Shown here: piece after piece, positions 819 through 25,758 of the stretch | Layout of the letters: the number at the start of each line of letters is the position of its first letter | How positions within the stretch are numbered: the stretch's first letter is position 1 | Source of the DNA: Candidatus Parcubacteria bacterium | GTDB lineage: Bacteria; Patescibacteriota; Microgenomatia; UBA12405 | Assembly (NCBI GenBank): GCA_023396915.1 | Contig: JAEWUV010000001.1 | Location: forward strand, 21,206 to 85,205 | Reading direction: 5' to 3' | DNA length: 64,000 bases | Notes under the pieces: model-generated | Seen by the model: only the letters and a program-made list of their open reading frames with translations | Told to the model about the DNA's origin: nothing | Databases searched by the model: none | Translations under genes and position numbers: made by a program

Positions 819-861
819 CCTGTCATTATACCATCTCAACCAACGTCTATGAATTAATATT

Positions 862-945
862 TTGACGCAGACAATGTTTTTTGCAGGGCGCAGTCTCTGA
901 GTGGATATTACGATGGTTACAAGCCCGAAAAAAATATTGTCGAGT
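862..945. repeat. R2 repeat copy 1 (gcgcagtctctgagtggatattacgatggttacaagcccgaaaaaa core), about 44 nt upstream of the ftsH start.
   Basis: Near-identical to 7730-7830. The shared core is gggcgcagtctctgagtggatattacgatggttacaagcccgaaaaaa. Confidence 0.7.
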
Positions 946-1104
946 CAAAATAAATTTTCAAAATTCGTAACAAAAATTTAAATAAAATTATCTCCGCATT
1001 TTCTCCTTTTTTACTCCGCATCAATATTTTCAAACAAAACCTTCCTCCGGGTAAACCGGTATCCTCCCTTAAAAAAGGAGGAAGTATTCAAGCAAAAAAA
1101 AAGA

Positions 1105-1452: not shown

Positions 1453-1545
1453 ACCAAAATTATATCTTAAAATTTAAGTCTAAAACCACATTTTTATTTT
1501 TGACGAAGATATTTATTTTAAAAAATTCCATTTTTCACTTATAAA

Positions 1546-1626
1546 AATTCGAAGCTATAATTTTTCAACGAATTTCAACACGCCAGTATTGACTGAGGTG
1601 AAAAATTGATAGCAAGAATTTTAAGT
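1546..1626. repeat. R1 repeat copy 1 (~85 bp: aattcgaa..taatttttYRacgaatttcaacRcg.cagYattgactgagg..aaaaattc...agaattt).
   Basis: One of five copies of an ~85-bp family. It lies 94-174 nt upstream of the minus-strand 95-aa gene start. Confidence 0.75.
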
Positions 1627-1654
1627 AAAAAAAATAATAAATTTATTTTTAAAA

Positions 1655-4618
1655 TCATTTCCCCAACACCACTCCCATCTTCACATCCTCATCCAGTTTC
1701 AAATTAAACAACACCTTCCCCCCCACAATACTTGCTGTCGGTTCAACTTGTAATGGTTGCCAACTCTCGGGATATGATATCAGACTCACCAAACTCGTTT
1801 CTCCAGTCCCTGGCTGTTTTTGAATATACTTCATATAAGTAAACTCCTTCCCCGCACCAAAATCAAAATTACTATTGTATTTCACTTCTAAAATTCTTTT
1901 CTTCAAAACCGGTACTGTCATCAAAAACCCTACCTCTTTTTTCCCATCAACCTCCTTAATATTTATTTCGCTATTAACATAAACTTTTTTAACTGAAGTA
2001 TCATATCCATCAGCCACACTAATTTGACTTAATTCCACCTCTTTTGGCAAATAAATTCTCACATAATTCTTATAATCTCCTCCTGGCCAATTATCATTTT
2101 TAGCTGTATTTTCATAAGTCACCCGAATTGTTCTGTTTAAACTCGACTGAGTAATTTCGGTTACTTCTTCAATCCCCTTTTGAATAAAATAATTTGCCTT
2201 ATTTACACCTAAATTTGCTTCAACTAAATACCAAAAATCAGGGACACAATTTTCCCGAGCACATTTTCCATTATAAATTTTCCCATCCCATCCCAAATCA
2301 TTAATTTTCTTGGCCAAACCACTATTATTAACCGCTATCTGAATCTCATTTTTTTGAAGCAAGTCCAACATCGAATCAACCAATAACCCCATTTTTTCTA
2401 TATTTAAATTTTTAATTTCCTCAAACATCTGAGCCCCTAGCCCTCCCAAGAAACTCGCCTTTTGCACCGACCCTGGAAAAAATTTAGTCTCAGCATAAAA
2501 CTCTGCCTGTTCATAAAGATTGTCAGCCGATATTTTTTCATCAAAATCAGGTACGTGAACTTCCCCTATTACCCCCAACATCGACTTAGCCACCGCCAAA
2601 TCAATCCCTATAATTCCATCAACCTTCTGTCCTGTTTCTTTTTCCAAAAACCACTGAATGTCAGCCCCTGTCTTCACAAAATCCGCCTTCCAGTTAGCAT
2701 CTCTCATATACCAATTTGCCTCATTTAAATGACTTTTAATTTCCCAAGGAGGTTCTACATGACCCTCCAATTGACCATCTGCTTCATAAACATCTTTAAT
2801 TTTAAACTCTGTCAATTTTCCACCCTTAAAAGTTATCAACCCATAACTACCAATAAACCCTCCTGTCGGCCTCAACTCCGACTCGTTTTGAAATAAAATC
2901 ATATATTTTCTTTCCTTACCGTCTACCCCCAAAAATTCTGGCAATAAATTAACTGTCTCTTTCCCCAAAGTAATCTTCACCCTAGTCTCATCCAAAACTT
3001 TTTCACCTTTCTGCAAAGACGACCTCCAACCAGCCGGCAACCAACTATAATCCCCTGATAATCTCGCTTGTAATAAACCAATATTATTTTCTATGTCCCC
3101 AATTCCTGTTTTTAGTATATCCAATTCCGTTGTCCAGTCTATCTGATTTCCCTTAAAAATAGCATTATTAATTTCTTCTGCCGCTTTAACTGTTGTTGGT
3201 AAACTTTTTTCTAAAATCAAAAAATCCATCAAAACTTTTAACCCACTTTGATAATTTCTCCCTAAAACAAAACTATTTAAACCCAATTCGCTTATTCTAG
3301 TATCAATCTCCTCTAATCCTTTAAGTCTTTTATCTGCCAAAATCTCAACCTGATTATATTTTTTATCCTTTATCAATTCCGGTATTTCTTTAACACTCCT
3401 CATAGCTCTATTTGTCACCCAACCCCATCTCATTGGTTCAAACAACAAAACTATTAAAAAACACACTACTATCACCCACCAATATCTCCACCCTTTCCAC
3501 CTTTTTTGTTTCTTTACCTTTTTCTCATTCTTTGTCTCACCAAAGATTTCAGCGACAGCGGCCTCCTCACTTTCCTCTTCAATATAATCTTTTTCCTTTG
3601 TCTCCTTTGTCTCCTTTTTCCCTATCAACCTTGGTAAATCAAAATCGTCACTTTTTTCCTCATAAACTACCATTTTTGGTTCTACCTTCTCCTTTTCTTC
3701 GATTTTTTCCTTTGTCTCACCAAAACTTTCAACGAAAGTGGGTTTTTCCTCTACCATCTCATTTTCCTCAACTAAAATATCAAATAATTTTTCATGTGTA
3801 TCCTTTTTTATTTTTTCTTCCATTTTTTTATCCTGAGCTTGTCGAAGGACACTTGCTGTTTTTCGTCTATTCTCTTCATCCATTAAAGAAAAAAAATACT
3901 GCAAAGTTCCATCAATTCCTTTATTAAAATCCATTTCTGCTTTCCAACGTAATTGTCTTTCACTTTCATCAGCTAATTTTTCATTCCCTTGATTAATTTC
4001 TTGATTAACTTCCATCACTTTAAATCTCGTCATTTTTGCCTTATCCATCAAAACCTTAGCTAGTTGTTCAAAGGTTATCTCTTTGCCTAAAAGTAAAAAA
4101 TATTCATTAGCCGTCCCCGACAAAAAACAAGCTCTTAAAATAGCTTCCACTAAATCACTTACAGCCAATAATCTAATTGTTTTACCGGCTTCAGGTAGCT
4201 CTAAATTCTTATTTCGCACCGCCTCTTTTATAACCTTAGACAAAAAATTATTTTCACCCATTCTTTCTCCATAAACACCCAAAGCCTCTACAATTCGCCA
4301 ATCTCTATCCAAAGTAGTTGCTTCCCGACTCAAATAACTTTTTCTCGTTTCATTGTCCACTGAAACCAAAACCAGTTTCTCTCCTTTAATTTTCCCCCAA
4401 TCGTTTTTATCGCCATAGAAATCAAAAACATAATCAAATTCCCCCTCAACTTCATCCAAATTCATTGCCCATTCAAAATTTTTTAAATCAGACAATCCAT
4501 TTATCATCTCTCCCACCCCAACCACATGAATATCTTTTTCTACCAATTCTTCCGCCAATTTTTTTGCCACAAAATGATCAATTCCCAAAATTAATGCTGT
4601 TGGAACCCCATGACTCAT
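1655..4618 (-). CDS. Large membrane-anchored protein with an N-terminal Rossmann/epimerase-like domain, an E/K-rich low-complexity linker, one TM segment and a C-terminal DUF4012-like domain.
   Basis: N-terminus ALILGIDHFVAKKLAEELVEKDIHVVGVG is a Rossmann-like motif. TM segment at WVIVVCFLIVLLF. C-terminal region contains LRPTGGFIGSYGLITF, characteristic of DUF4012. Two FGETK(E/N)(K/E)K repeats sit in the linker. Confidence 0.55.
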   Translation of the reverse strand: MSHGVPTALILGIDHFVAKKLAEELVEKDIHVVGVGEMINGLSDLKNFEWAMNLDEVEGEFDYVFDFYGDKNDWGKIKGEKLVLVSVDNETRKSYLSREATTLDRDWRIVEALGVYGERMGENNFLSKVIKEAVRNKNLELPEAGKTIRLLAVSDLVEAILRACFLSGTANEYFLLLGKEITFEQLAKVLMDKAKMTRFKVMEVNQEINQGNEKLADESERQLRWKAEMDFNKGIDGTLQYFFSLMDEENRRKTASVLRQAQDKKMEEKIKKDTHEKLFDILVEENEMVEEKPTFVESFGETKEKIEEKEKVEPKMVVYEEKSDDFDLPRLIGKKETKETKEKDYIEEESEEAAVAEIFGETKNEKKVKKQKRWKGWRYWWVIVVCFLIVLLFEPMRWGWVTNRAMRSVKEIPELIKDKKYNQVEILADKRLKGLEEIDTRISELGLNSFVLGRNYQSGLKVLMDFLILEKSLPTTVKAAEEINNAIFKGNQIDWTTELDILKTGIGDIENNIGLLQARLSGDYSWLPAGWRSSLQKGEKVLDETRVKITLGKETVNLLPEFLGVDGKERKYMILFQNESELRPTGGFIGSYGLITFKGGKLTEFKIKDVYEADGQLEGHVEPPWEIKSHLNEANWYMRDANWKADFVKTGADIQWFLEKETGQKVDGIIGIDLAVAKSMLGVIGEVHVPDFDEKISADNLYEQAEFYAETKFFPGSVQKASFLGGLGAQMFEEIKNLNIEKMGLLVDSMLDLLQKNEIQIAVNNSGLAKKINDLGWDGKIYNGKCARENCVPDFWYLVEANLGVNKANYFIQKGIEEVTEITQSSLNRTIRVTYENTAKNDNWPGGDYKNYVRIYLPKEVELSQISVADGYDTSVKKVYVNSEINIKEVDGKKEVGFLMTVPVLKKRILEVKYNSNFDFGAGKEFTYMKYIQKQPGTGETSLVSLISYPESWQPLQVEPTASIVGGKVLFNLKLDEDVKMGVVLGK

Positions 4619-4942
4619 ATCAATATTTTAACCTGTTTTTACTCCTTACTACCAACCAATAACTAATAACTAAACAATACGGTAATATTTCGGTTTATTT
4701 GCGGTTATTAACTATTAAAAATGTATGAACAGCCATGAGAGGGAAGTATCAGAACGTGAAAAAACGTCATAACGTCAATATGTGTATCTGTATTTACAAA
4801 AAATTAAATTCCAAGCTAAAAATCTCAAAAACAAACAGTCTAATAATCAAAATTTACGTTCGAACCTGATTCCAAAGTTGTCAAAACAAAATCATATTTT
4901 GTACATATTCCAAAGCAAAAACAACATCAATAATTTTATATT

Positions 4943-5030
4943 TAAATTCGAAACTATAATTTTTTGACGAATTTCAACGCGACAGCATTGACTGAGGCAA
5001 AAAATTCGTAGTGAGAATTTAAAAAAACAA
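4943..5030. repeat. R1 repeat copy 2.
   Basis: aaattcgaaactataattttttgacgaatttcaacgcgacagcattgactgaggcaaaaaattcgtagtgagaattt. Followed by the shared tail aaaaaaacaaaattgttatcaggccaaaaaat. Confidence 0.75.
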
Positions 5031-5066
5031 AATTGTTATCAGGCCAAAAAATAAAATTATCCAAAC

Positions 5067-6284
5067 CTACTTTCTCTTTACCAACATCCCTGTCATCAAC
5101 ACTACCGCTATCAATTCTGTCAAAACCGTTATCCAAGCCGCTCCATTAATTCCAAAAGAGGGGATTAATAATAAGTTCCCCCCAATATTTACCACCAAAG
5201 AAACTAGACCTACCAACAAAACCTGTTTTTGTTTTCCTAAAGCAATCAAAGTAAAACCCACTAAATGCCCCAAATAAGCAAATATCATCGCTACCAACAA
5301 AATTCTCAAAACCAATACTGATTTTTCAAATCCATTTCCAGACAATACCCCAATAATCCACGGCGCCAAAAAATAAACCACCCCAGACACCACTATTGCT
5401 CCTAGAAACATCAAAACCCCGGTTTGCCAAAAAAGTCTCTTTCTGTCGTTTTGCTTATTCGACAGCATTGGAAATACACTGTTAATCAAATAATATGCTG
5501 GCTGAACCAAGTTCCCATAAATTTTGTACGCCAAACCATAAAAAGCCAAATCTCTTACCCCGATCAACTGTTTAATCAAAATCGAATCTACCGCCCTGTC
5601 GTAACCAGAAAACAAAATCATATACACCCCCATCGGCCACGACTGTTTCAAAAAATTTACCCAAAAAGTTTTATTAGGTCTAACTAGTTTTAACCTACCC
5701 AAAAGTTTACCTGTTAAACCCAAACCAACCCCCAAGCTAATAATCCGGGCTATCAAATAAACCCCAAAAACTCCAATTAAATTAACTTGGGCTTGCCAAC
5801 CGAATAACCAAACCACAAATATTAATGGGAATAAAATATCTATCCATACTTTTAACTCCATTCTCATTTCTGTTTGAAAAATTATTTCCAAACTTCCAGC
5901 CACAGCCGTAAACCCAACCATCAACAAACCCATTAACGCCTCTATTTCTATCCCATCAAAACCACTCCACAGTAAAATTACTCCCAATCCTACCAAAAAC
6001 ATTAGTAGGGAAGCAAACAACCTAAACCAAGCCACCTGAATATAAATTTCTTTTCTTTTTTCTTCGCTTTCTTTTGCTGCCTCCCTAACCCCCATCACTT
6101 TAGTTCCAAAATCAGCTGCCGAATCCAACAGTAGCCACATTGAACCAATCAACATATAATTTCCATAAACTTCCACCCCCAATTTTCTGGTCAAAATCGC
6201 TGTTGTTACCAAACTCAAACCCACAGTAATACATTTCCCCAACACTTGTACCAAGGTGTTCCAAATCGGTTTCTTCATCAACAT
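5067..6284 (-). CDS. Polysaccharide biosynthesis protein / oligosaccharide flippase (Wzx-like, MOP superfamily).
   Basis: Polytopic membrane protein. N-terminus LGKCITVGLSLVTTAILTRKLGVEVYGNYMLIGSMWLLLDSAADFG is typical of Wzx/PST-family flippases. Confidence 0.6.
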   Translation of the reverse strand: MLMKKPIWNTLVQVLGKCITVGLSLVTTAILTRKLGVEVYGNYMLIGSMWLLLDSAADFGTKVMGVREAAKESEEKRKEIYIQVAWFRLFASLLMFLVGLGVILLWSGFDGIEIEALMGLLMVGFTAVAGSLEIIFQTEMRMELKVWIDILFPLIFVVWLFGWQAQVNLIGVFGVYLIARIISLGVGLGLTGKLLGRLKLVRPNKTFWVNFLKQSWPMGVYMILFSGYDRAVDSILIKQLIGVRDLAFYGLAYKIYGNLVQPAYYLINSVFPMLSNKQNDRKRLFWQTGVLMFLGAIVVSGVVYFLAPWIIGVLSGNGFEKSVLVLRILLVAMIFAYLGHLVGFTLIALGKQKQVLLVGLVSLVVNIGGNLLLIPSFGINGAAWITVLTELIAVVLMTGMLVKRK

Positions 6285-6312
6285 AAATCTATTTTATCCT
6301 AAAATTTTTATT

Positions 6313-6400
6313 TAAATTCGAAATCGTAATTTTTTAACGAATTTCAACACGCCAGTATTGACTGAGGTAAAAAATTCATGATGAGAATTTAAAAAAATAT
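6313..6400. repeat. R1 repeat copy 3, 29-116 nt upstream of the flippase start.
   Basis: aaattcgaaatcgtaattttttaacgaatttcaacacgccagtattgactgaggtaaaaaattcatgatgagaattt, then tail aaaaaaatattaccaagccgaaaaat. Confidence 0.75.
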
Positions 6401-6418
6401 TACCAAGCCGAAAAATTT

Positions 6419-7690
6419 TTAAACCAGTGCTAATACCAAAGACAACAGCCACATGTTCTGGGGTAGGGTAAACCAATAATGATCTACCATCCCACTCATA
6501 AAAATTACCCCCAATACCACCCAACTCCATTTACCCAAGTCTCCCCATTTAATCTTTTTAGCCAATAACAAAATTGTTCCCATTAATCCCAAAATTCCTA
6601 CCTCTGACACCAAAAGCAAAAATATATTATGTACCGGTTGTAACCAAAAAGTATGGTTATTTTTTAAAACATTAGGCAAATTAGCCAAATAATTTCCCAG
6701 CCCTACTCCTACCCAAGGTGATTGTCGAATCATTTCTATTGCCGCTAAATTTAATTGACCTCTTTTGATCATTCCATTCTCATCCCACCCACCAAAAAAA
6801 TTACCCAAAGGATAATTAAAATCAACCAATTTTAATAAAAACAAAATTAAAATTAATCCCAATACTACAAATTTAATTTTATTTCTGATTTTCCAATCAT
6901 TTTGCCAAAACCAAAAACACATTACTCCCAAAGTTAAAAACCAAATTGTTCTACTTCCAGTCAAAAATATTCCCATCAATCCCAACCAAAATACCCCCCA
7001 CCATTTAATTTTTTCTAAGACTGCTCCCTTTTTTAAGGGGAGCTGTCCCGATTTATCGGGACTGAGAGGTTTGTTCCTTATCCACCACACCAACCCCACT
7101 AACAAAAAACCAGCCAAACTATTCGGGTGAGAAAAAGTTCCATAAGCCCTTACTAAACCTGTATTAACCACTGACATTTGAGCAATTCCTATTGTATTAA
7201 AATCAAATCTTCTTTCACCCAAAAACCACCACAAACCATTCAAACTTCCACCTTTAGATATTTGTCCCAATGCTAAAAGTGACTCAAGTATTATCCAATA
7301 GGGAATAACTTTAATCATAATATCTCCAACAATTCTCTTATTTTTTACTACCCAAAACCAAAAATAACCCAATTCCACCACTCTCAACCACTTATAAACC
7401 GCCACCCATTTATTAATCGACACTAAAATATTTATCCCCACAAAAACTAATCCCAATAAACACCAAAAACTAACCTCCCATTTCCTCTTCTTACTTTCTG
7501 CCAACAAATTAGTTATTAACCAAAGTACAAAGACTAAATCTACTAAATAAAAAGTCGGTGAAAAATAATCAATCCTTATTCCCAACACTGTCGACCAATC
7601 AAACCAAAAATGTTTTCCCAATTGTGTTGGAATTAACAAAATCAACCAAAACAACAAAATTTTTGTCACCTTACCCCAAAATCCTTTCAC
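6419..7690 (-). CDS. O-antigen ligase/polymerase-like (Wzy_C family) membrane protein carrying an in-frame hairpin-repeat insertion.
   Basis: C-terminal motif PVHNIFLLLVSEVGILGLMG (H-N...E.G..G) is typical of the O-antigen ligase family. Polytopic. Residues RNKPLSPDKSGQLPLKKGAV are encoded by repeat copy B at 7021-7077. Confidence 0.6.
   Translation of the reverse strand: MKGFWGKVTKILLFWLILLIPTQLGKHFWFDWSTVLGIRIDYFSPTFYLVDLVFVLWLITNLLAESKKRKWEVSFWCLLGLVFVGINILVSINKWVAVYKWLRVVELGYFWFWVVKNKRIVGDIMIKVIPYWIILESLLALGQISKGGSLNGLWWFLGERRFDFNTIGIAQMSVVNTGLVRAYGTFSHPNSLAGFLLVGLVWWIRNKPLSPDKSGQLPLKKGAVLEKIKWWGVFWLGLMGIFLTGSRTIWFLTLGVMCFWFWQNDWKIRNKIKFVVLGLILILFLLKLVDFNYPLGNFFGGWDENGMIKRGQLNLAAIEMIRQSPWVGVGLGNYLANLPNVLKNNHTFWLQPVHNIFLLLVSEVGILGLMGTILLLAKKIKWGDLGKWSWVVLGVIFMSGMVDHYWFTLPQNMWLLSLVLALV
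7021..7077. repeat. Composite GC-hairpin element, copy B (ctgctcccttttttaaggggagctGTCCCGATttaTCGGGACtgagaggtttgttcc), in frame inside the ligase-like CDS.
   Basis: First 27 nt are identical to copy A at 1105. The second hairpin CCCGAT-tta-ATCGGG is shared with the copies at 25641 and 19314. Confidence 0.7.
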
Positions 7691-7729
7691 AACCCAATCT
7701 TACCACAAAGCCAAAAGTTTAATTGTAAT

Positions 7730-7830
7730 TTTGGCGCAGATAATATTTTTGAAGGGCGCAGTCTCTGAGTGGATATTACGATGGTTACAAGCCCGAAAAA
7801 ATTGTTATCAAGCCAAAAAATTACAATAAA
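7730..7830. repeat. R2 repeat copy 2 plus the shared tail, about 40 nt upstream of the ligase-like gene start.
   Basis: ttttggcgcagataatatttttgaagggcgcagtctctgagtggatattacgatggttacaagcccgaaaaaattgttatcaagccaaaaaat. Confidence 0.7.
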
Positions 7831-7842
7831 AATATTATGTAC

Positions 7843-8313
7843 TTAAGCCTTTGGCTTAATCACCACATGCCTTTGTTCACCTTCGCCTTCCGACTCACTT
7901 ACCACCCCTTCCATTTCCGAAATCACCATATGACAAATCCGTCTTTCATAAGAACTCATATTAGCCAAAGCCACATCTTTATTGCTTACCAAACATTTCT
8001 CAGCCAGACCTCTCACCATATTTGTCAATCTTTCTTTTTGTTCATTTCGATAGTTATTAATATCAAGAAGAACTCTGACTTCTTCACCGACTTGATTCCG
8101 CACTATCAAAGCCAAAATTAACTGCACTGCCGCCAAGTTTCTTCCTCTAAAACCAATTAATCCTGCCGGATTAGCTACTGTAATTCCCACTAATACTTGA
8201 TTTTCTTCACCCTCAACGTCTTCCACAAAGGCTTTTTCCACTTCAAAATTGATCTGTGCCAAAAAATCACAAGTAAGTTGTAAGATTTTTTCATTTCTTT
8301 TTTTATTATCCAT
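7843..8313 (-). CDS. jag: Jag/KhpB-like RNA-binding protein (KH + R3H).
   Basis: R3H-like C-terminus (LTNMVRGLAEKCLVSNKDVALANMSSYERRICHMVI). Sits in the conserved yidC-jag position next to the origin. Confidence 0.7.
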   Translation of the reverse strand: MDNKKRNEKILQLTCDFLAQINFEVEKAFVEDVEGEENQVLVGITVANPAGLIGFRGRNLAAVQLILALIVRNQVGEEVRVLLDINNYRNEQKERLTNMVRGLAEKCLVSNKDVALANMSSYERRICHMVISEMEGVVSESEGEGEQRHVVIKPKA

Positions 8314-8354
8314 AGCCGCTATTTTAGCATAAAAATTTCCCGATAAAATAATAA

Positions 8355-8440
8355 ATTTAAATTTAGAAGTTATAATTTTTCAGCGAATTTCAACGCAAAG
8401 CATTGACTTAAGATGAAAAATTCGTAACAAGAAATTTAAA
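8355..8440. repeat. R1 repeat copy 4 (the most diverged), upstream of jag.
   Basis: aaatttagaagttataatttttcagcgaatttcaacgcaaagcattgacttaagatgaaaaattcgtaacaagaaattt. Confidence 0.65.
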
Positions 8441-8445
8441 TAGAA

Positions 8446-9228
8446 TTATTTTTTACTAAGTCTATTTACCAAAACCTGTTGGCCGACGGTTAATAGAGAC
8501 GTAGTAAACCAATACAACAACAAACCCAAAGCAAAATTCCAGCCAATAAAAATTGTCATCAATGGCATCATATAAAGTGATTGGGTTCTCATCGCCGCCA
8601 TCATATCATCACCTTTTTCCTTTGTAGTATCGGCAATATTTTCACTTACTTTAGGGCTAGGCATCATAATTTTTGCTGCTAAAAACTGTAAGGCTCCTGA
8701 ACCTAATAATAAAACTACTGCCATTATCAAATTCATTCCCATACCCTGAGCAAAAGCCTTTGATGGAGTCAAAGATAAATCACTCCCCAAAAAATTTAAA
8801 TTAAAATTAAAACCTTCCTCAATTCTAAAAGAGGGGATTAATTGGGCATTGATATCCGCCACACTACTTTTTTGTCCAGCTCTCGAAAAACCACTTACCA
8901 TATTAAAAGCCGAAAAGAAAAGCAATAGCACTACTATTTGTAAAATCTGTGGCAAACACCCCGACATTGGATTAACCCCTTCTTGTTTATATAAACTCAT
9001 CTGAGCCTGAGCCAAAGCTTGTTTATTAGTTCCATATTTCTCTTTTAATTTATTCAATTTAGGTTGTAATTCTCTTATTTTTCCGGCCGATTTTAAACTT
9101 GGCCAAATCAATGGAAAGAGTATTACTCTCAATAAAACTGTTACTGCTACAATCGACCAACCAAAATTCCCAAACCAATAATAAAAAGCAAACAATGCAT
9201 TAACAAATGGCGCTATTAATAAATTCAT
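8446..9228 (-). CDS. yidC: Membrane protein insertase YidC (short form).
   Basis: Motifs of the YidC/Oxa1 family (LLRVILFPL..., GCLPQILQIVVL) and the conserved origin-region gene order. Confidence 0.9.
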   Translation of the reverse strand: MNLLIAPFVNALFAFYYWFGNFGWSIVAVTVLLRVILFPLIWPSLKSAGKIRELQPKLNKLKEKYGTNKQALAQAQMSLYKQEGVNPMSGCLPQILQIVVLLLFFSAFNMVSGFSRAGQKSSVADINAQLIPSFRIEEGFNFNLNFLGSDLSLTPSKAFAQGMGMNLIMAVVLLLGSGALQFLAAKIMMPSPKVSENIADTTKEKGDDMMAAMRTQSLYMMPLMTIFIGWNFALGLLLYWFTTSLLTVGQQVLVNRLSKK

Positions 9229-9237
9229 AAGTAATAG

Positions 9238-9441
9238 TCATTTTAACAAATCAATTCCTTTTCCACCACCCGGCCTACACCTCAAAACCCGATTTAATCC
9301 CAACCATAAACCTTTTACAACTCCATATTTTTCTACCGCCTGATAGGTATATTCCGAACAAGAGGGGATAAATCTACATTGTTCACCCCTAGAAATATAT
9401 TTTTTATACCAAACCAACAACTTTAAAACTATTTTTTTCAT
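9238..9441 (-). CDS. yidD: Membrane protein insertion efficiency factor YidD.
   Basis: CRFIPSCSEY motif. 67 aa. Confidence 0.9.
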   Translation of the reverse strand: MKKIVLKLLVWYKKYISRGEQCRFIPSCSEYTYQAVEKYGVVKGLWLGLNRVLRCRPGGGKGIDLLK

Positions 9442-9773
9442 TAAAGCTTTGGGATTAACCTGTCCACCTCTTTTTCTAAATCAACCACACTTGCCTCTAA
9501 AGCTGCTTTTTTAACCAAAAACAATACCCTCAACCCACTCTGAAACTTATCCAACTTTTTACTTAAAACTACCATTAGTCTTCTCTTAATCTTATTTCTA
9601 TCAACCGCTCTTTTAGAAATCTTTTTAGAAATAATTACCCCAAATTTAAGTAATTTATCCTCTTTATCTTCCGTTACCACTCCAAAAAAAGGGGACGACA
9701 ACACCATTTTCCCTTTTTCTTTTAAATCCCCAAACTCCTTCCTTTTAGAAATCCTGTTTATCTTTTTCAGCAC
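9441..9773 (-). CDS. rnpA: RNase P protein component.
   Basis: Basic 110-aa protein immediately downstream of rpmH. Its stop overlaps the yidD start (ATGA). Confidence 0.8.
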   Translation of the reverse strand: MLKKINRISKRKEFGDLKEKGKMVLSSPFFGVVTEDKEDKLLKFGVIISKKISKRAVDRNKIKRRLMVVLSKKLDKFQSGLRVLFLVKKAALEASVVDLEKEVDRLIPKL

Positions 9774-9787
9774 AAGATAATTATACC

Positions 9788-9925
9788 TTAGGCACTAATC
9801 TTTTTTCGTCCCTTAGCCCTTCGTCTTTTCAAAACATTTCTGCCAGTAGCGCTTTTCATTCGCTTCAAAAATCCGTGAACCCGTGAATGTCTTTTACTTT
9901 TTGGTTGATATGTTCTTTTTGTCAT
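9788..9925 (-). CDS. rpmH: 50S ribosomal protein L34. Not in the ORF track because it is under 60 aa.
   Basis: Translation [45 protein letters not shown] is near-universal L34. Confidence 0.92.
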
Positions 9926-9954
9926 AAGTCGTATTTTAACATATAAAAAGTTAA

Positions 9955-10040
9955 TTATTATAAATTCGAAATCGTAATTTTTTGACGAATTTCAACACGC
10001 CAGTATTGACTGAGGCAAAAAATTCATGATAAGAATTTAT
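9955..10040. repeat. R1 repeat copy 5, 30-115 nt upstream of the rpmH start (minus strand).
   Basis: aaattcgaaatcgtaattttttgacgaatttcaacacgccagtattgactgaggcaaaaaattcatgataagaattt. Confidence 0.75.
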
Positions 10041-10051
10041 AAGTTTGCTTC

Positions 10052-10170
10052 AAATTATCCTCTTTCATTTTGTGGAAAACTCATTTATTATGATGTGGAT
10101 AACTCAAAAACAACTCCTCCGGTTGTTTGCAGTCCCGCTACTGCGGGATTATCCTTCCCCACACCACTGC
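10052..10170. promoter_or_regulatory. rpmH-dnaA intergenic region: DnaA boxes (TGTGGATAA at 10094-10102, TGTGGAAAA at 10071-10079, plus weaker ttatcctct/ttatccttc) and a palindromic hairpin TCCCGCtactGCGGGA (10133-10148).
   Basis: Direct read of 9-mers matching TTATCCACA or its reverse complement. The dnaA promoter and autoregulation region. Confidence 0.6.
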
Positions 10171-11554: not shown

Positions 11555-11833
11555 TCAAAATTTACTTATCCACAAAATTATTAGTTTATCCACCAACTTA
11601 TCCACAAAATTATTTTTCTTTTTCCCCCGAAACTTACCCCAACTCCATATTTATTTTATAAGATAATTAAAATCAAAAATAACCAAAATATCGCCAAATT
11701 TAGTTTTTAAACACAATTAATTTTCAAAAAACATGATTCTTACCACTTTTTCATCAAACTATTCCACTTATAAACCCCACCTAATAACTAACACTACTAT
11801 TTTTTTTATTAATTTATATCTATAATAAAGCCA
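11555..11833. promoter_or_regulatory. Candidate oriC between dnaA and dnaN. Three same-orientation DnaA boxes (TTATCCACA 11566-11574, TTATCCACC 11586-11594, TTATCCACA 11598-11606) are followed by an AT-rich putative unwinding element (about 11640-11830).
   Basis: Perfect consensus 9-mers read directly. The downstream stretch is extremely AT-rich with A/T tracts. Confidence 0.7.
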
Positions 11834-12949
11834 ATGAATCTCTCTCTTCTCCAGGAGAACCTCAACCTTGCCCTGACCAACGTTTCCCGTTTTGTTTCTT
11901 CTAAAAATCAACTACCAGTATTAAATAATATTTTATTGTCTACCAATCAGGGTCGTCTCAAGTTATCTGCCACTAATTTAGAACTAAGTATTAATTATTG
12001 GATTGGTGCCAAAATAGAAGAAGAGGGGAGTATCACTATCCCCTCAAAAGAAATCACCGAATTTGTTTCTTATCTACCAACAGGAAAAATTGACTTAGAA
12101 CTCAAAAACAACCTTTTAACTCTTTCTTCTGAAAAAACCAATTCCGAATTCACCACTACTCCAGCTACAGATTTCCCCGAGTTTCCTAAAATAAATCCTG
12201 AAACCATATTCGAAATTGATTTTGATCTTTTTACTCAAAGCATTAATCAAATTTCTTTTTCCGCTGCTCTTGATGACACTCGGCCTATTTTAACTGGTGT
12301 TTTATGTATTTTTGAAAAAAAATCTGTCAAATTTATTGCCACTGACGGTTTCCGTCTTTCTTTAAAAGAAATCAAATTAGAAATACCACTTGATATTAAA
12401 AAAGAATCTTTGAGTTTTTTGATTCCCGCTAAATCCTTAATAGAAGTCACTAAACTGGCTAAAAACGATTCAAAAATTAAAATAGGTCTTACATCTGATG
12501 AACACCAAGTAATATTCATTCTAGACGATATAGAACTAGTTTCTCGACTTATAGAGGGTGAGTTTCCGGATTATAAAAAATTAATTCCTGAAAACTACTC
12601 TACCAAAGTCTTTATAAATAAAGATGAATTATTCCAATCAGTTAAACTTGCCTCTGTTTTTGCCAGAGAGTCAGCTAATGTAGTTAAAATCAATATTAAA
12701 AATAATAATTTAGAATTAACCGCTAACGCCCCTCAGGTTGGCCAAAATTTAATTAAAATAGACTCAAAAACTGAAGGAGAGAACTTAGAAGTTGCTTTTA
12801 ATTATAAATTCCTAATCGATTTTCTTAATGTTTGCAAAAGTAATGAGATTCTAATTGAATTAAATGAGAGTCTCAGTCCTGTTTTTTTTCACGACCAATC
12901 CGACCCTTCCTTTACTCATATAATAATGCCAGTTCGTTTACAAGACTAA
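11834..12949 (+). CDS. dnaN: DNA polymerase III beta sliding clamp.
   Basis: MNLSLLQENLNLALTNVSRFVSS... beta-clamp N-terminus, about 370 aa, downstream of dnaA. Confidence 0.9.
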   Translation: MNLSLLQENLNLALTNVSRFVSSKNQLPVLNNILLSTNQGRLKLSATNLELSINYWIGAKIEEEGSITIPSKEITEFVSYLPTGKIDLELKNNLLTLSSEKTNSEFTTTPATDFPEFPKINPETIFEIDFDLFTQSINQISFSAALDDTRPILTGVLCIFEKKSVKFIATDGFRLSLKEIKLEIPLDIKKESLSFLIPAKSLIEVTKLAKNDSKIKIGLTSDEHQVIFILDDIELVSRLIEGEFPDYKKLIPENYSTKVFINKDELFQSVKLASVFARESANVVKINIKNNNLELTANAPQVGQNLIKIDSKTEGENLEVAFNYKFLIDFLNVCKSNEILIELNESLSPVFFHDQSDPSFTHIIMPVRLQD

Positions 12950-14688
12950 TTACTTGTCTCCACTGCATTTTCATCCCAGAATTGTGCTCCCTGAAAATAA
13001 CCTGGCCCAAAAACTTGTTGATTAGCAAGGAATAAGGACCCTGCTATAATTGCAATCAAAATTCCAGCCGACACTGCTACTGCCGCTTTTACTTTAAACC
13101 CTCCAATAGAAGAAAGTGCTCCCCCTAAACCATTAACTCCCTTCAAAAATCCACCTCCAAGCCTCGTAATTCCATTTCCCAACCCTTTTCTAATCCCTGG
13201 CCCTAATCTACTCCCTAAGTCTCCCAAAGATTTTTTCAAAAAACCACCTGTTGTTGCCGACAAGTTCTTTAATCCATTTGAAATATTTCCCATTAATCCC
13301 AATCTCATACCCCCTCCATTTGCCATACCAGCATAAACCCTCCCCATCGCATCACCAAGACTGTTCCCAGTAAACATTTTTATCGACCTTTCTATATTTT
13401 GATTTTGTTGGCTCCCAATTTTTCTTTGTCCGCCCATAAACCGGTACATATTTACTTTTGTTTCCCCAAAGAGAGCCCTTTTTCTTTGAATTCGCTCCAG
13501 TGCTCCTTTGACTTTCTCATCTTTTCTTAAAACCGCATTTACTCTGTCAAAAGCATCTAAATTAGAATCAGCTGGAATTTTTAAACCACCCAATACTACA
13601 TCTGCTTTTTCCGACTTTTCCAATATATCTCTTGTTTCTTTAGGAGATATATTTACATATCCCGCCGTTACATTAAAATTATCAACGGCAATTTTAGCTT
13701 TACCGGAAGGGTCTTTACTTAATATTGAATTTTCTTGATTTTTAATTTCATTGTCTAAATTAAGCACTTGACTAGATAATTTCTTTTTTACCCTTACAGC
13801 TTGTTTTTGCTCTTCGGTTATTTTCCCTCCATTTTCTTTTTTAACTTTTTCTACAAACCTTTCAGTCAAATAATTATCGACTGCCTCACGATGCTCAGAT
13901 GCCCATTTTTCTAACTCTAATGTTATCGCTTTAATTTTTACCTTATATTCCAATTGAGATATTTCTCCTTTAGCCACAGCTCTGGTTAAATCATTTATTT
14001 TTTCTTCATTACTCTTAATTTCTGACCCATCTATAATTCTTTCCATTTCAGTTTCAATTCTGCTTATTGTTTCCTTATCTACCTCACTCTTCCCGGATTC
14101 TTGAGCCAATTTTCTGCTTAAATCTTGAATTTTCCCCTTCACTAATTTCACATCTTCTTTAACTTTTTTATCAACAACTTCTTCCCTTACTACTGTCCCA
14201 TCTTCAGCCTTACTTTTATCTTCTGGTTTTTCCTCTATAACAACCCCTTCCTCCGCTTTAATTTTTTCACTTTTAAGTTTAGTTTGAGTCTCAATAAATC
14301 TTCTTATATTTTCATCAGCTAAACTTGGTTTTTTATCTAAAATATCTTGAATTTCTTTTAAAACAGCCTCACTACTATTATCATTTTTGGCTTGTTTTTC
14401 ATCAAACTCTTTTAATAATTCATCTAGTTTTTGCTTACTAATTTGCTCATCACCAATCTTTTTTTCCGCATCTGCTTTTCTTTCTAGACTATTGATTGCT
14501 TCGTCAACTTTGTCAGATATAACCCCTTTAACTAATTCATCGAGAGATTTTTTAAACTCACCATTTGGGTCTAACTCTCCTCCTAATTCTTTTAACTGTC
14601 GCAAATAAATTAAACCATCATCAAAAGAAATTACTTTTATACTATTCAAAAAAACAATTTGTCCTTCTCTGTCATTTGGTAACGCCAT
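12946..14688 (-). CDS. Hypothetical 580-aa protein: long coiled-coil N-terminal two-thirds, a Gly-rich (GxxG repeat) region and a C-terminal TM helix. Last gene of the VirB4 operon.
   Basis: E/K-rich heptad-like sequence, then GGGMRLGLMGNISNGLKN...GLGNGITRLGGGFLKGVNGLGGALSSIGG, then AAVAVSAGILIAIIAGSLFL. No recognisable catalytic motif. Confidence 0.4.
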   Translation of the reverse strand: MALPNDREGQIVFLNSIKVISFDDGLIYLRQLKELGGELDPNGEFKKSLDELVKGVISDKVDEAINSLERKADAEKKIGDEQISKQKLDELLKEFDEKQAKNDNSSEAVLKEIQDILDKKPSLADENIRRFIETQTKLKSEKIKAEEGVVIEEKPEDKSKAEDGTVVREEVVDKKVKEDVKLVKGKIQDLSRKLAQESGKSEVDKETISRIETEMERIIDGSEIKSNEEKINDLTRAVAKGEISQLEYKVKIKAITLELEKWASEHREAVDNYLTERFVEKVKKENGGKITEEQKQAVRVKKKLSSQVLNLDNEIKNQENSILSKDPSGKAKIAVDNFNVTAGYVNISPKETRDILEKSEKADVVLGGLKIPADSNLDAFDRVNAVLRKDEKVKGALERIQRKRALFGETKVNMYRFMGGQRKIGSQQNQNIERSIKMFTGNSLGDAMGRVYAGMANGGGMRLGLMGNISNGLKNLSATTGGFLKKSLGDLGSRLGPGIRKGLGNGITRLGGGFLKGVNGLGGALSSIGGFKVKAAVAVSAGILIAIIAGSLFLANQQVFGPGYFQGAQFWDENAVETSN

Positions 14689-14721
14689 TTACTAAATTAT
14701 AGCAACTAATTACTACGCAAA

Positions 14722-17007
14722 TTAAATTATTCCACTATCTAGTAAATCGTCAGGAGTAGGTTCGTTGCTGTTTGTTTTATTCTCAAACAAAGGCGTCGGT
14801 TTTTTTGCTAATTGTGGCGGTTGGGGAATATTGGTCTCTTCTGTTTTTACAAAAATCGGTTTTTGTTTTTGTTCTGGTTCTAGTACCTCCATTTTAGGTG
14901 GTACAAATCTGTCTTGTTTTTCTTGACTATCCAATCTAATCTCTCCTGATAAATTAGGCTTTTTAACCTCAGCTTTTTCTAACTCATCAATCTTTTTTTG
15001 AAGTATATCTTCTACTTCATTTTTTTGAACCTCTTTACTTTCCTCTGAACTTTCACTTTTTGGAGTTTCAGTCAGAGGCTGATTAACCACTGGCTGAGGA
15101 GCTGGAATTTCAGCTTTTGGTTGAGGAACTGGAGTCTCAGTCTTTGGCTGAGGAGTTGGAGTTTTTTCAAGTGTTTCCAATTTTCTTTTTCTCAAAACCT
15201 CTTCCGGGTCAGAAGTAATTAATTGATGTTCTTCCTCTGAAGCAATAACTTCTACTGCTACATGGTTCTGTCCAGCAAAAAAGAGACCTTGGCCTTTATC
15301 AGCGGTTAATAATAATTGTTTTTCTCCTTCACTTAAATAAAATACCTCACCCACCTGATCAATTGCCGCCGCGTGTTGTTTAAGTAAAATCTGAATCGAA
15401 CTATTAGTTACAATTTCTTTTCCGTAAGTACTCTTTAAAAAATCATTAACATCCTGAGTAATTGTAGTCACACCCAAATAATATTTTCTACCTCTTTTAA
15501 CTACCCCTCTTAAAAACTGAGCCGAATCTTCGTATTGCATCATATACCAAGCTTCATCTACCACTAAAATCCTTTTCTTTAATGTCTTTTTAACTATGGT
15601 CCAAATATAGTCCAAAATAATATGCATCGCTACTGGCCTCAAAGTTTCTTCTAGATTTTTTATCCCAAACACCACAAATTGATTGGTTAAATTAACTGTA
15701 GTTTTTTGATTAAAAATACCCGCAAACGACCCTTTAATATATTTTTCCATCCTAGCAGCTATCATTTGGGCTTTTTCTTCCTCTCTTCCTATTAAAGCTT
15801 TATAAACATCCTCAATCAAAGGTGGCTCTTTATTTTGGGTTTCTGGGTCTGGGGTTATCCCTTTTGCTTTATAAGCATCCATCAAAGCCTTATCTAAAAT
15901 AGACTCTTCCATTGGATCTAATGCCCCCAACATTACCTTCATTAATTTATGGACCGAAAGAGTTTTACTGTTCAAAGCATTCTCTCCTTCCTCTTCTACC
16001 AAAGACAAATCCATTGGGTTTATTTTCGACTCTTCATTGTAGCCAAAAGCAATATATTGCCCTCCGGCCGCATCGGCCAAGTCCTTATATTCGTTTTCAG
16101 GATCTATTACAATTACTTCTGTTCCAAACATCAAAGATCGCAATACTTCCAACTTAATCATATAAGACTTTCCTACGCCTGAGGTAGCAAAAACCACTGA
16201 GTTGTAGTTCGGCATGGAAAATCGGTCAAAAATTATTAACGATCCATTATGGGCATTAATCCCATACATTACTCCCTTATCGTCAGACAAATCAGAAGAT
16301 ACAAATGGAAAAGTTGTTGCCAACGAAGTGGTGTCCATATTTCTGGTTATTCCCAATCTGTCACTATTAGCCGGTAAACAAGTTATAAAACCATCTTCCA
16401 TCTGCAAAGTTGCTCTTTTACTCACTACCAACAAAGACCCTAATGCCGCCTCTAAATTTTTATTAATCCTATCCAAATCCTCTTTAGAATCTGCTGAAAT
16501 ATTTATATAAAGCCCAAACTGAAAAAACCTTTCTTCTCCTTTTACTAAATCTGCTTGTAAATTCAAAGCGTCTTCAAGCTTTGCTTGTGTTGCCGGATTT
16601 ACCAATCGACCACGTTGGATATCAGTACTTAATTCCGCCTCCATTTCTGTAATTTTGCGTCGTAAATCATCTAAAATCGCCTTGCCATCAGTTGGATAAA
16701 TATACATCGAGATATTCAGTGTCCAATCAAAATTAATCAAAGAAGACAGCCAATTCATCCCGACAAACCTTGGATAACCGGATACAAATAAGGTTCGAAA
16801 ATATTTATCACCAATTCTGACATGGTTAAAATCAACTTCCAAAGATGATGGGGCAATTATATCTTTAATCGAAACTAATCCATCGGAAAAATCTCTTTTT
16901 TTAGTATTATCAACAACTCCAGATTCCTCTGTTTTTTCCTTAGAATTACCCTTGTTTTCCACAGCCACAGTTTTTGGTTTTCTAATTATATTTTTCAATA
17001 AATCCAT
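14722..17007 (-). CDS. virB4: VirB4/TrsE/PrgJ-family type IV secretion ATPase (C-terminal 761-aa portion) with a P/Q/K/E-rich disordered tail.
   Basis: IAPSSLEVDFNHVRIGDKYFRTLFVSGYPRFVGMNWL is the CagE_TrbE_VirB N-region. Walker A is FATSGVGKS and Walker B is ILVVDEAWYMM. The tail has PTPQPKTETPVPQPKAEIPAPQP repeats. Confidence 0.85.
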   Translation of the reverse strand: MDLLKNIIRKPKTVAVENKGNSKEKTEESGVVDNTKKRDFSDGLVSIKDIIAPSSLEVDFNHVRIGDKYFRTLFVSGYPRFVGMNWLSSLINFDWTLNISMYIYPTDGKAILDDLRRKITEMEAELSTDIQRGRLVNPATQAKLEDALNLQADLVKGEERFFQFGLYINISADSKEDLDRINKNLEAALGSLLVVSKRATLQMEDGFITCLPANSDRLGITRNMDTTSLATTFPFVSSDLSDDKGVMYGINAHNGSLIIFDRFSMPNYNSVVFATSGVGKSYMIKLEVLRSLMFGTEVIVIDPENEYKDLADAAGGQYIAFGYNEESKINPMDLSLVEEEGENALNSKTLSVHKLMKVMLGALDPMEESILDKALMDAYKAKGITPDPETQNKEPPLIEDVYKALIGREEEKAQMIAARMEKYIKGSFAGIFNQKTTVNLTNQFVVFGIKNLEETLRPVAMHIILDYIWTIVKKTLKKRILVVDEAWYMMQYEDSAQFLRGVVKRGRKYYLGVTTITQDVNDFLKSTYGKEIVTNSSIQILLKQHAAAIDQVGEVFYLSEGEKQLLLTADKGQGLFFAGQNHVAVEVIASEEEHQLITSDPEEVLRKRKLETLEKTPTPQPKTETPVPQPKAEIPAPQPVVNQPLTETPKSESSEESKEVQKNEVEDILQKKIDELEKAEVKKPNLSGEIRLDSQEKQDRFVPPKMEVLEPEQKQKPIFVKTEETNIPQPPQLAKKPTPLFENKTNSNEPTPDDLLDSGII

Positions 17008-17009
17008 AG

Positions 17010-17708
17010 TTATTTGGTTGTGACCATTGGGCTGTAATAATTAACCTCTTTAAGTTTTTGGTTATCCGCTACTTCCGGGTTATATATTTTATAAAATAAT
17101 TCAGTTAACTCTTTGTTTTCCAAAAGTGAAACCTCCAAACCTAATCTCGAGAATAACCTTATCAAATGATCTTTTTTCGGTTCTAAACTCGCTTTCGCCT
17201 TTTCTAGAATATAACTTTTAGGATAAGGCAAACCAATATTTCTATCTTTTTTTATCAATCCTTTTAAACTTTGTTTACCCATACTCTTAATTCCCAATTC
17301 TGCCGAAGAAAACTTGACCACCACATAAAACGATTTAGATAAAACATCATTTCTTTTAACTATATCTTCGATAAACTTTCTATATTTTTTAATTCTCTCT
17401 TTCAACATTTTATTCTCCTGTTTTTCTTCCGCTTCATTCAACCTTTTCATATAAGACCCAATGTCTTTAGTGTCAGATTTAATTATTATTTGAACAGGAA
17501 AGTTTAAAGAATTTAAAATTCCACCGTAAGCCATTATCAACGCCGATTGTTCCCTCTCTGACAATAAATCAAAATTTACCGAAGAAACTCTTAATATTGA
17601 AACCGCTGAACCGTCTTTCAAAATAACTACATCCTCAATAATATCCTCAATCGGCAAATGCTCTTGAGTTGTACCTTTAATAGCTATTTTAAGAGGATCG
17701 TTTGGCAT
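17010..17708 (-). CDS. VirB4-family N-terminal domain fragment (232 aa). Probably the 5' part of the same virB4 gene, separated by a frameshift.
   Basis: LPIEDIIEDVVILKDGSAVSILRVSSVNFDLLSEREQSALIMAYGGILNSLNFPVQIII resembles the extreme N-terminus of Gram-positive VirB4 (PrgJ/TcpF-like). Its stop (17010-17012) lies 2 nt from the next ATG, which is in a different frame. Confidence 0.55.
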   Translation of the reverse strand: MPNDPLKIAIKGTTQEHLPIEDIIEDVVILKDGSAVSILRVSSVNFDLLSEREQSALIMAYGGILNSLNFPVQIIIKSDTKDIGSYMKRLNEAEEKQENKMLKERIKKYRKFIEDIVKRNDVLSKSFYVVVKFSSAELGIKSMGKQSLKGLIKKDRNIGLPYPKSYILEKAKASLEPKKDHLIRLFSRLGLEVSLLENKELTELFYKIYNPEVADNQKLKEVNYYSPMVTTK

Positions 17709-19313: not shown

Positions 19314-19365
19314 AGCCCTCCCTTTTTCAAGGGAGGGTGCCCGATAGGGCGGGTGGGTTTAATTC
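19314..19365. repeat. Composite GC-hairpin element, copy D (agCCCTCCCtttttcaaGGGAGGGtgCCCGatagggCGGGtgggtttaattc), immediately upstream of the 5'-3' exonuclease start.
   Basis: Shares hairpin-1 architecture and the gggtgggtttaatt tail with copy C at 25641. Confidence 0.65.
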
Positions 19366-19379
19366 TGCTAAACTACATC

Positions 19380-25640: not shown

Positions 25641-25693
25641 AGCCTCCTTTTTTAAGGGAGGTCCCGATTTATCGGGGGTGGGTTTAATTTTCC
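25641..25693. repeat. Composite GC-hairpin element, copy C (agCCTCCttttttaaGGGAGGTCCCGATttATCGGGggtgggtttaattttcc), between mutM and the iscRS fusion.
   Basis: Two consecutive hairpins followed by the gggtgggtttaatt tail. May act as the mutM terminator and/or the isc leader. Confidence 0.65.
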
Positions 25694-25758
25694 TCATTGA
25701 CACATTTTTATTTTTTTAATAAAATCAATTCGGACAAGTTTAGTCCGATATAAACTAA

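Follow-up and report, generated by a model that had tools for sequence, protein, structure and literature searches.

A probable family of palindromic repeat DNA, locked to chromosomal strand asymmetry, in Microgenomates-type Patescibacteria

Introduction

A conserved block of about 85 bp recurs five times beside the dnaA gene of a Candidatus Parcubacteria bacterium, and its presence there raises the question of what kind of element it is. The block, designated R1, lies in a 64,000-nt stretch of contig JAEWUV010000001.1 (assembly GCA_023396915.1, positions 21,206 to 85,205), hereafter the window, which is part of a 906,714-bp metagenomic scaffold. A sequence-only reading of the window had offered three explanations, namely a shared promoter or operator module, a leader RNA, or a dispersed small mobile repeat, and had proposed covariation analysis and an Rfam scan as checks. 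We consider it probable that R1, together with a sister family designated D2, is structured palindromic repeat DNA of Microgenomates-type Patescibacteria (Candidate Phyla Radiation, CPR), resembling the Rickettsia palindromic elements (RPE) and the repetitive extragenic palindromic (REP) elements. R1 would then be a new palindromic repeat family, distinguished by its conserved centre, its covarying ends, and the lock of its orientation to strand asymmetry.

Identification of the R1 copies

A repeat search of the window found a single family, made up of five 96-nt direct units, all on the + strand, at 1533-1628, 4932-5027, 6302-6397, 8348-8443, and 9950-10045, with 64-86% identity to the reference copy. 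A pattern describing the 32-nt core, applied with up to three mismatches, matches four times in the window, versus 0.00 matches expected from 100 shuffles; the fifth copy, c4, falls outside these four matches and is more diverged. The covariance model built from the five copies scores each of them at 88-108 bits (E-values from 1e-19 to 1e-25) and, with its filters switched off, detects no further copy in the window, the remaining 54 kb of which is empty. Repeat search and covariance model together bear out the earlier claim of five ~85-bp copies in the same orientation, and the consensus first drawn for them was essentially correct.

Pfam domains identify the minus-strand genes of the region as, in order, an RNHCP-domain gene, DUF4012, a flippase gene, Wzy_C, jag, yidC, yidD, rnpA, and rpmH, with dnaA on the plus strand. 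Copy c1 (1543..1628, + strand as are all five; 104.9 bits; RNA fold -20.2 kcal/mol, z -4.9) lies between the DUF4012 stop codon at 1655 and the start codon at 1452 of the RNHCP-domain gene, which encodes 95 aa. Copy c2 (4942..5027; 107.9 bits; fold -23 kcal/mol, z -4.8) follows the flippase gene (5067-6284, minus strand) and precedes the DUF4012 start codon (4618). Copy c3 (6312..6397; 104.5 bits) occupies the spacer between the Wzy_C stop codon (6419) and the flippase start codon (6284). Copy c4 (8358..8443; 88.1 bits), the most diverged, stands between the yidC stop codon (8446) and the jag start codon (8313), and departs from the others in its apical hairpin, GC-AAA-GC, and in the replacement of CTGAG by CTTAAG. 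Copy c5 (9960..10045; 103 bits) lies in the rpmH-dnaA intergenic region, between the rpmH start codon (9925) and the first DnaA box (10071-10079), from which it is 26 nt away. As had been claimed, four of the five copies are close to a minus-strand start codon, at 90 nt (RNHCP), 27 nt (flippase), 44 nt (jag), and 34 nt (rpmH), while the fifth is 323 nt from the start of the DUF4012 gene. The relation to the stop codon of the preceding gene is tighter, with distances of 26, 39, 21, and 2 nt for c1 through c4.

Structure and conservation of the hairpin

Each R1 copy is one imperfect palindrome of 79-92 nt, with a G+C content of 23-42%. The outer stem, AAATTC/GAATTT, covaries (AAAACC/GGTTTT, CAATTC/GAATTG) and encloses an internal loop with 3 nt on one side and 2 nt on the other. 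The next stem, of 5 bp, is hypervariable yet complementary (GCTAT/ATAGC, ACTAT/GTAGT, ATCGT/ATGAT, GTTAT/GTAAC, and others). A one-base bulge separates it from a 9-bp stem formed by an A/T run, the final two pairs of which covary (TG/CA, CA/TG, TA/TA). The ~30-nt internal-loop core follows, with an asymmetric internal loop that is almost invariant, (A/G)CGAATT on the 5' side and CTGAG(G/A) on the 3' side. The apical hairpin has the form TCAAC-NN-loop-NN-ATTGA, and in it one C.A mismatch is always present, reading T.G on the opposite strand.

Covariation was evaluated on 37 distinct copies, drawn from at least 11 genomes; their alignment was guided by the model and hence favors the structure, although the margin is large. 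Standard pairs occupy 95.9% of cells, both sides have changed in 21 of the 27 pairs, and the number of compensatory cells is 163. None of 500 shuffles reached these values, and registers shifted by 1-3 columns pair in merely 33-52%. An unguided RNAalifold run on the five window sequences already yields 9 compensatory pairs. The alignment thus supports a paired structure, but one that differs from that proposed at the outset: the 7-bp inverted repeat AAATTCG...CGAATTT noted by the sequence-only reading does exist in four copies, yet its pairing lacks evolutionary support: the 5' AAATTC has as its partner the covarying GAATTT at the element's 3' end, and the internal CGAATTT does not vary. Identity per alignment column reaches 93-95% in the A/T run and 86-92% in the core, but is 75-78% for the outer and variable stems and only 43-50% for the two closing pairs, so that conservation is central and the ends are the least conserved part of R1. 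Folding energies are alike on both strands, whether computed for RNA or for DNA, with z-scores from -2 to -5.5.

Orthologous copies in genomes 72-82% identical to the window differ in ways that preserve pairing, as in GTTAT/GTAAC versus GTCAT/GTGAC. The c3 ortholog in L089 (1993-2077; related loci carry the prefix L) has ATCAT/GTGAT against ATCGT/ATGAT in c3, with the pairs retained, and orthologs of c4 are found in the yidC-jag spacers of L069, L119, and L089. Positions conserved among relatives are yidC-jag, Wzy-flippase, and ATPgrasp_ST-RimK. Because the changes at shared positions preserve pairs, resident copies evolve in place under selection on hairpin and core; they are inherited, and the hairpin and core are under purifying selection.

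Distribution among genomes and the D2 family

Just beyond the window the same scaffold carries three additional R1 copies: two come after stop codons, those of ATPgrasp_ST and of a RimK-like gene, and the third stands 24 nt past a 5S rRNA gene. The ninth copy on the scaffold is about 150 kb distant, with rpmG on one side and a radical-SAM gene on the other. The first pattern used to search genomes was too loose, returning 116 stretches that were mostly chance matches; true homologs were then found with the covariance model, which places R1 in no fewer than 11 Patescibacteria genomes, at many loci that are unrelated. These include metagenome-assembled genomes (MAGs) 72-82% identical to the window, another Patescibacteria MAG, Shapirobacteria, and a genome labelled Woesebacteria. 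The flanking genes in these relatives are unrelated to one another: recR, dnaX/ybeY, murB, amidohydrolase, S9 peptidase, rpsA, ftsH, rpmG, ATP-grasp, and 5S rRNA. The typical site is 0-40 nt 3' of a stop codon and, once, 3' of the 5S rRNA gene. R1 is rare, as a specific pattern matched only 19 metagenome stretches, and a pattern search of viral contigs gave no true match.

Presence differs between close relatives. Locus L069, about 80% identical to the window, aligns without R1 in its rpmH-dnaA spacer, and a covariance-model search of L089 and L132 found no counterpart of c1. A further kind of difference involves D2, which is a longer palindromic sister family of R1. One D2 element, a palindrome of about 105 nt, occupies the jag-Wzy_C spacer (7728..7824, + strand; fold -32.8 kcal/mol, z -4.4) and is a weak match to the R1 model at 23.3 bits; a second (859..956, + strand; 22.3 bits; fold -37 kcal/mol, z -5.2) occupies the spacer between the RNHCP-domain gene and ftsH. 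The two match over 73 nt at 92% identity. D2 has an A/T-run scaffold like that of R1 and a distinct conserved core, CTGAGTGGATATTACGATGGTT; two more copies on the same scaffold (L149) have covarying stems and the same polarity. Relatives hold R1 where the window has D2, L089 at jag-Wzy_C and L132 at the position equivalent to 859-956. R1 therefore turns over between relatives, residing at gene boundaries and occasionally in open reading frames (ORFs).

Two observations concern the related genomes themselves. A diverged R1 subtype occurs in the Woesebacteria-labelled genome and a second Shapirobacteria genome, in L145 (12334-12423, 349-437, 20454-20543) and L144 (19245-19335); in it, paired GTAAT/ATTAT replaces the internal loop and the apical hairpin reads CGAAC-GTGC-GAC-GCAC-ATTCG, with the C.A mismatch retained. 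Contigs 72-81% identical to the window also come from MAGs titled "uncultured Gammaproteobacteria bacterium" (CAZWUG01, CAZCWF01, CAYRYK01, CAYOPC01, CAZLCB01; loci L004, L019, L025, L027, L056, L069, L089, L098, and L107). Their ATP-grasp protein is 73-80% identical to proteins named for Shapirobacteria or Woesebacteria, and the label is almost certainly wrong.

Orientation and strand asymmetry

The strand bearing the R1 consensus is C-rich at 30 of 30 loci, with a whole-locus GC skew of -0.17 to -0.48. Measured on that strand, the skew is -0.07 to -0.40 for genes on the same strand and -0.20 to -0.67 for genes on the opposite strand. With the neighboring genes as reference, about 18 of 22 independent positions have the consensus antisense and four have it sense (rpmG-radical SAM, the junction of a 67-aa gene with an NTP transferase gene, murB, and the intragenic radical-SAM copies), and the C-rich rule includes these four. 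All nine copies on the 906,714-bp scaffold lie on one absolute strand, despite the reversed gene direction at the rpmG locus. Since the lock holds irrespective of gene direction, the orientation of R1 follows a chromosome-level property rather than transcription: it is tied to chromosome-wide strand asymmetry.

The + strand of the window has a negative GC skew throughout (-0.03 to -0.53 in 2-kb windows), with no change of sign at dnaA (10214). Genes of either strand share this bias, as they do at all related loci (also L142 and L149). The DnaA box pairs TGTGGAAAA/TGTGGATAA flank dnaA, at 10071-10102 in the rpmH-dnaA spacer and at 11566-11606 in the dnaA-dnaN spacer, an oriC-like arrangement despite the unswitched skew. 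Some Microgenomates are reported to show a G/C disparity over the whole chromosome, interpreted as one-directional replication (PMC7143001), and the skew of the window agrees with that pattern.

Copies inside coding regions

None of the five window copies is intragenic. Among the relatives, two ORFs for RimK-like ATP-grasp proteins in the Shapirobacteria locus L106 hold three in-frame R1 copies. When the L106 sequence is compared with solved RimK structures, 35 query residues stand opposite 4 RimK residues, and the surplus of ~31 aa is the R1 copy. In L075, an in-frame copy lies within a radical-SAM gene, in opposite orientation to the gene. The insert in radical-SAM proteins is absent from orthologs 49-75% identical (49% for the L075 comparison) and present in many others, in which ~30 residues are inserted at the same site (..ENSADAFFSSIQRATHIGRLEKNRVKEFSN..); L150 and L151 carry an R1-family copy there. 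Genes with an in-frame R1 remain intact ORFs with the element in either orientation. That ORFs read intact through R1 both ways is evidence against its being a strong terminator or cleavage site. In-frame copies inside intact genes are a hallmark of RPE (PMC2229807).

Nature of the element

R1 matched no known RNA class. The proposed Rfam scan gave 0 matches at the gathering threshold over the window, with only chance-level hits around c3 (E 0.27-9.7), and a scan of the window for tRNA and tmRNA found none. A terminator scan reported no R1 copy; the U-tract is absent which, together with the copies within ORFs, rules out an intrinsic terminator. A leader RNA, one of the explanations offered at the outset, does not fit elements that are closer to the upstream stop codon, that adjoin unrelated genes and in one case follow a 5S rRNA gene, and that occur in both orientations to genes. 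The dispersed-small-repeat explanation is, by comparison, the one to gain: unrelated loci, differences in presence, and in-frame copies all support it, and they suggest that R1 is or has been mobile.

How might such a repeat act? Most likely, its active form would be a hairpin of single-stranded DNA that becomes exposed on one template strand as the chromosome replicates. The conserved core, with its invariant loop and mismatch, is a putative recognition site, whether for a mobilizing or recombining enzyme or for a host factor, and recognition of the hairpin by a protein could underlie either the spread of R1 or a use by the host. Co-transcribed copies would probably form RNA hairpins at the 3' ends of cistrons as well, as a side effect. 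A bolder proposal, which we advance tentatively and think unlikely to hold in full, is that R1 and D2 serve, in Microgenomates, as the cis sites of a DNA system that is strand-specific and has gone unrecognized. The hairpin would be extruded on one template strand and its invariant internal loop and mismatch read by a protein, in the service either of a new, transposase-independent spread of hairpin DNA at replication forks or of a domesticated polar signal tied to the apparently one-directional replication.

Several points weigh against interpreting R1 as palindromic repeat DNA. The flanks of 36 copies show no consistent direct repeat that would mark a target-site duplication, although their A+T-richness hampers the exclusion of very short ones. 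The poorly conserved ends are unlike those of classical transposable repeats. No transposase, integrase, HUH, IS, or RAYT gene was found in ~106 kb of the 907-kb scaffold. A clean pair of empty and filled sites was not obtained, the L069 spacer being too diverged for exact boundaries. The bias toward sites after genes of the G-rich strand, at ~18 of the 22 positions, hints at an effect at the RNA level, and the link between strand asymmetry and replication direction is an assumption. Nor does this interpretation account for the strong clustering: one side of dnaA has at least 8 copies within ~32 kb (of roughly 45 kb searched), and the other has 0 in 54 kb. Finally, the largely stable positions among relatives and the purifying selection on core and stems are no less compatible with a host function than with selfish spread.

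The best-surviving alternative, unlikely but to be taken seriously, is that R1 is a cis-acting RNA hairpin in operon transcripts, either a 3' stabilizer in the manner of REP or a processing or protein site like the RNase III sites of phage T7; such a role could be compatible with an origin as repeat DNA. It suits the location shortly after stop codons and, once, after 5S rRNA, with R1 often filling the whole spacer, and it suits the orientation to the upstream gene shared by most independent positions. On the gene-sense (window minus) strand the apical helix is always fully paired through the invariant U.G, a wobble that shifts by one pair in L142:19192 and is doubled in L089:26 but never lost; selection to keep hairpin and core is likewise in accord. 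However, four independent positions are reversed relative to their genes with the sequence unchanged, and strand asymmetry accounts for all four. In-frame copies in intact ORFs in both orientations are hard to square with cleavage or termination, and the lack of a U-tract is a further difficulty. G.T occurs in 37 cells (21 of them at one position) and A.C in 13 cells plus the one invariant C.A; outside these two special positions the scattered G.T and A.C pairs balance at 16 versus 13, and therefore neither RNA strand is favored.

Rather less probable, in our judgment, is a host DNA element that works for replication in one orientation only, such as a hairpin that serves lagging-strand priming or initiation on a single strand, or a polar barrier to forks that aids one-directional replication. 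The apical hairpins include GNNA loops of the GCGAAAGC type, and GNNA-type loops form very stable DNA mini-hairpins. Strict polarity at all 30 loci, the cluster beside dnaA, and the proximity of c5 to the DnaA boxes would follow naturally, and the sign of the skew is constant across dnaA as in Microgenomates with proposed unidirectional replication (PMC7143001). Against this, c5 is absent from L069 and is therefore dispensable near the origin, and other copies lie ~150 kb from dnaA or within ORFs. The far side of dnaA, where a barrier to the "wrong" fork would be needed, has no copy at all, and a protein site in double-stranded DNA would not require covarying stems.

We regard it as quite improbable that R1 is transcribed from the consensus (window +) strand, whether as a small RNA gene in multiple copies or as a cis-antisense RNA. 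On that strand every tetraloop is GNNA (GCCA, GACA, GAAA, GCAA, GTAA, GTGA, GCGA, GAGA), the pair adjacent to the bulge is T.G (U.G in RNA) in 21 of the 37 copies, tandem G.A pairs could arise in the internal loop, and D2 folds better than on the opposite strand (-33 to -37 versus -23 kcal/mol). The same strand nevertheless carries the invariant C.A mismatch, no promoter or terminator is conserved, certain copies have just 7-9 nt of flank per side, and the in-frame copies in ORFs and the lack of an Rfam match also count against an RNA gene.

The leading idea of the sequence-only reading, a shared promoter or operator for the downstream minus-strand genes, retains next to no probability: four of the five window copies do end 27-90 nt before a start codon, with A/T-rich -10-like hexamers at the gene-proximal edge (e.g. 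TATAAT in c5), but a promoter scan of the region found 34 promoter-like sites versus 32.3 expected, which is chance level, with no consistent overlap between R1 and the hits of either the promoter or the terminator scan, and no conserved -35/-10 pair at proper spacing, the -35-like TTGACT/TTGAAA on the two arms jointly become TTCACT/TTCAAA in Shapirobacteria so that the pairing is retained and the hexamer lost, and orientation is independent of the genes, with R1 inverted relative to them at several loci and present after 5S rRNA and inside ORFs.

Comparison with known repeat families

Searches of the literature turned up no account of an element like R1 in Patescibacteria. By function and genomic behavior R1 appears closest to RPE and secondarily to REP elements, while its polarity recalls IS200/IS605 and attC. 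RPE are palindromic repeats of 105-146 bp in Rickettsia (Ogata et al. 2000, reviewed in PMC2229807). Like them, R1 is a short, lineage-restricted palindrome with a single long stem-loop, found in reduced genomes, that encodes no protein and has no known mobilizing enzyme; both occur between genes, in frame within intact conserved genes, and beside genes for stable RNAs (PMC2229807). R1 is shorter, at 79-92 nt, and belongs to another phylum; the two are likened by behavior and not by sequence, and homology to RPE-1 through RPE-8 is not expected because the lineages are unrelated. The invariant core, freely covarying ends, and strict polarity of R1 also differ, none of these features being mentioned for RPE in the review (PMC2229807).

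REP elements are G+C-rich, 20-40 nt long, present in hundreds of copies, tagged by a terminal GTAG/CGTC, and associated with a RAYT transposase gene (PMC3733652). R1 shares with REP and the bacterial interspersed mosaic elements (BIME) an extragenic hairpin shortly after stop codons in operons, maintenance of structure by compensatory change, and possible hairpins at mRNA 3' ends, and, as in the REP/RAYT system, a strand-specific enzyme could plausibly act on it in the form of a hairpin of single-stranded DNA. It is excluded from REP by its size of ~85 nt, its low G+C content, and the lack of a conserved GTAG/CGTC tag in the alignment; it also occurs in frame in ORFs, and the ~106 kb examined holds no RAYT.

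Elements of the IS200/IS605 group, and their miniature derivatives, likewise have imperfect hairpins recognized on one DNA strand and make no target-site duplication. Ton-Hoang and colleagues reportedly tied the orientation bias of IS200/IS605 to the replication fork in 2010. The orientation of R1 follows the replication strand too, if the direction of replication is taken from the skew. Membership is nonetheless rejected, as IS200/IS605 elements have two distinct end hairpins, a conserved target tetranucleotide, and a TnpA/TnpB gene elsewhere in the genome, and R1 is a single symmetrical hairpin with non-conserved flanks; the ~106 kb examined showed no TnpA/TnpB gene.

Integron attC sites are imperfect palindromes of 57-141 bp that lie directly 3' of ORFs, share one orientation within an array, and are polar with respect to replication. 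They are recognized as a folded single strand in which unpaired or mismatched bases are functionally important, a feature that invites comparison with R1. In attC, however, the base boxes (R''/L''-L'/R') are conserved and the centre is variable, whereas R1 has a conserved centre and a variable base, so that the wrong part of the hairpin is conserved. R1 flanks core housekeeping genes (rpmH-rnpA-yidC, rRNA) and not cassettes, no integrase was found among annotated neighbors, and attI is lacking. MITEs, or miniature inverted-repeat transposable elements, of the terminal-inverted-repeat type (Correia/NEMIS, ERIC, RUP; PMC2229807) are also small, A+T-rich, non-coding stem-loops that are intergenic, occasionally fused to ORFs, and co-transcribed. 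Their terminal inverted repeats are conserved, their termini are TA, and they duplicate the target site; R1 has variable termini (75-78% identity in the outer stem versus 86-95% in the core and A/T run) and no target duplication was seen, which sets it outside this class. TIGR-Tas arrays and box C/D-like kink-turns were rejected because the ATGATGA of c3 and c5 lacks conservation and R1 is scattered rather than arrayed in tandem, and similarity to parS or to DnaA boxes is not convincing.

The genomes of CPR/Patescibacteria are considered streamlined, with little mobile DNA. If R1 and D2 are what we take them to be, CPR genomes carry structured palindromic repeats that shape spacers and add inserts of ~30 residues to conserved enzymes, as RPE do in Rickettsia. 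The orientation lock ties this repeat family to the unexplained strand asymmetry of Microgenomates and makes R1 a potential sequence marker of strand polarity, and the invariant core hairpin offers a specific bait for the protein that recognizes it. Caution is warranted in annotating conserved intergenic blocks of this kind as promoters, operators, or riboswitch-like leaders.

Other features of the window

The region also contains smaller palindromes. An identical 31-nt G+C-rich hairpin (AAGACTGCTCCCTTTTTTAAGGGGAGCTGTC) occurs at 1101-1131 and 7017-7047. One copy, with a U-run on the minus strand, resembles a terminator of the RNHCP-domain gene; the other lies in frame in the Wzy_C ORF (..SPDKSGQLPLKKGAVLEK..), adjoining a second small hairpin (TCCCGATAAATCGGGA). 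The presence of this hairpin within the Wzy_C ORF means that other families of small palindromes also occupy coding sequence here. Members of a family of short G+C-rich hairpin repeats (CCTTTTTYAAGGGAGG...CCCGAT..GGG..GGGTTTAATT) stand at gene ends, at 19321-19369 and 25646-25694; probably they are of terminator type and akin to the hairpins at 1101 and 7017.

A stretch from about 44950 to 53200 has low G+C (26-30%) and no R1 copies. It encodes a Type ISP restriction-modification protein of 1039 aa together with Fic/Bro-N, PD-(D/E)XK, radical-SAM, DUF2726, and RhuM-like genes, and looks like a defense or mobile island. Genes for a TraG/VirB4-like ATPase and a TraC-like protein adjoin dnaN (window 12946-17708), and an array of seven type IV secretion system (T4SS) pilin genes (L142 6186-8971) adjoins the 7TM_transglut-ATPgrasp_ST-RimK-RimK cluster. 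This arrangement is conserved in Shapirobacteria and in the Woesebacteria-labelled genome (L144-L146).

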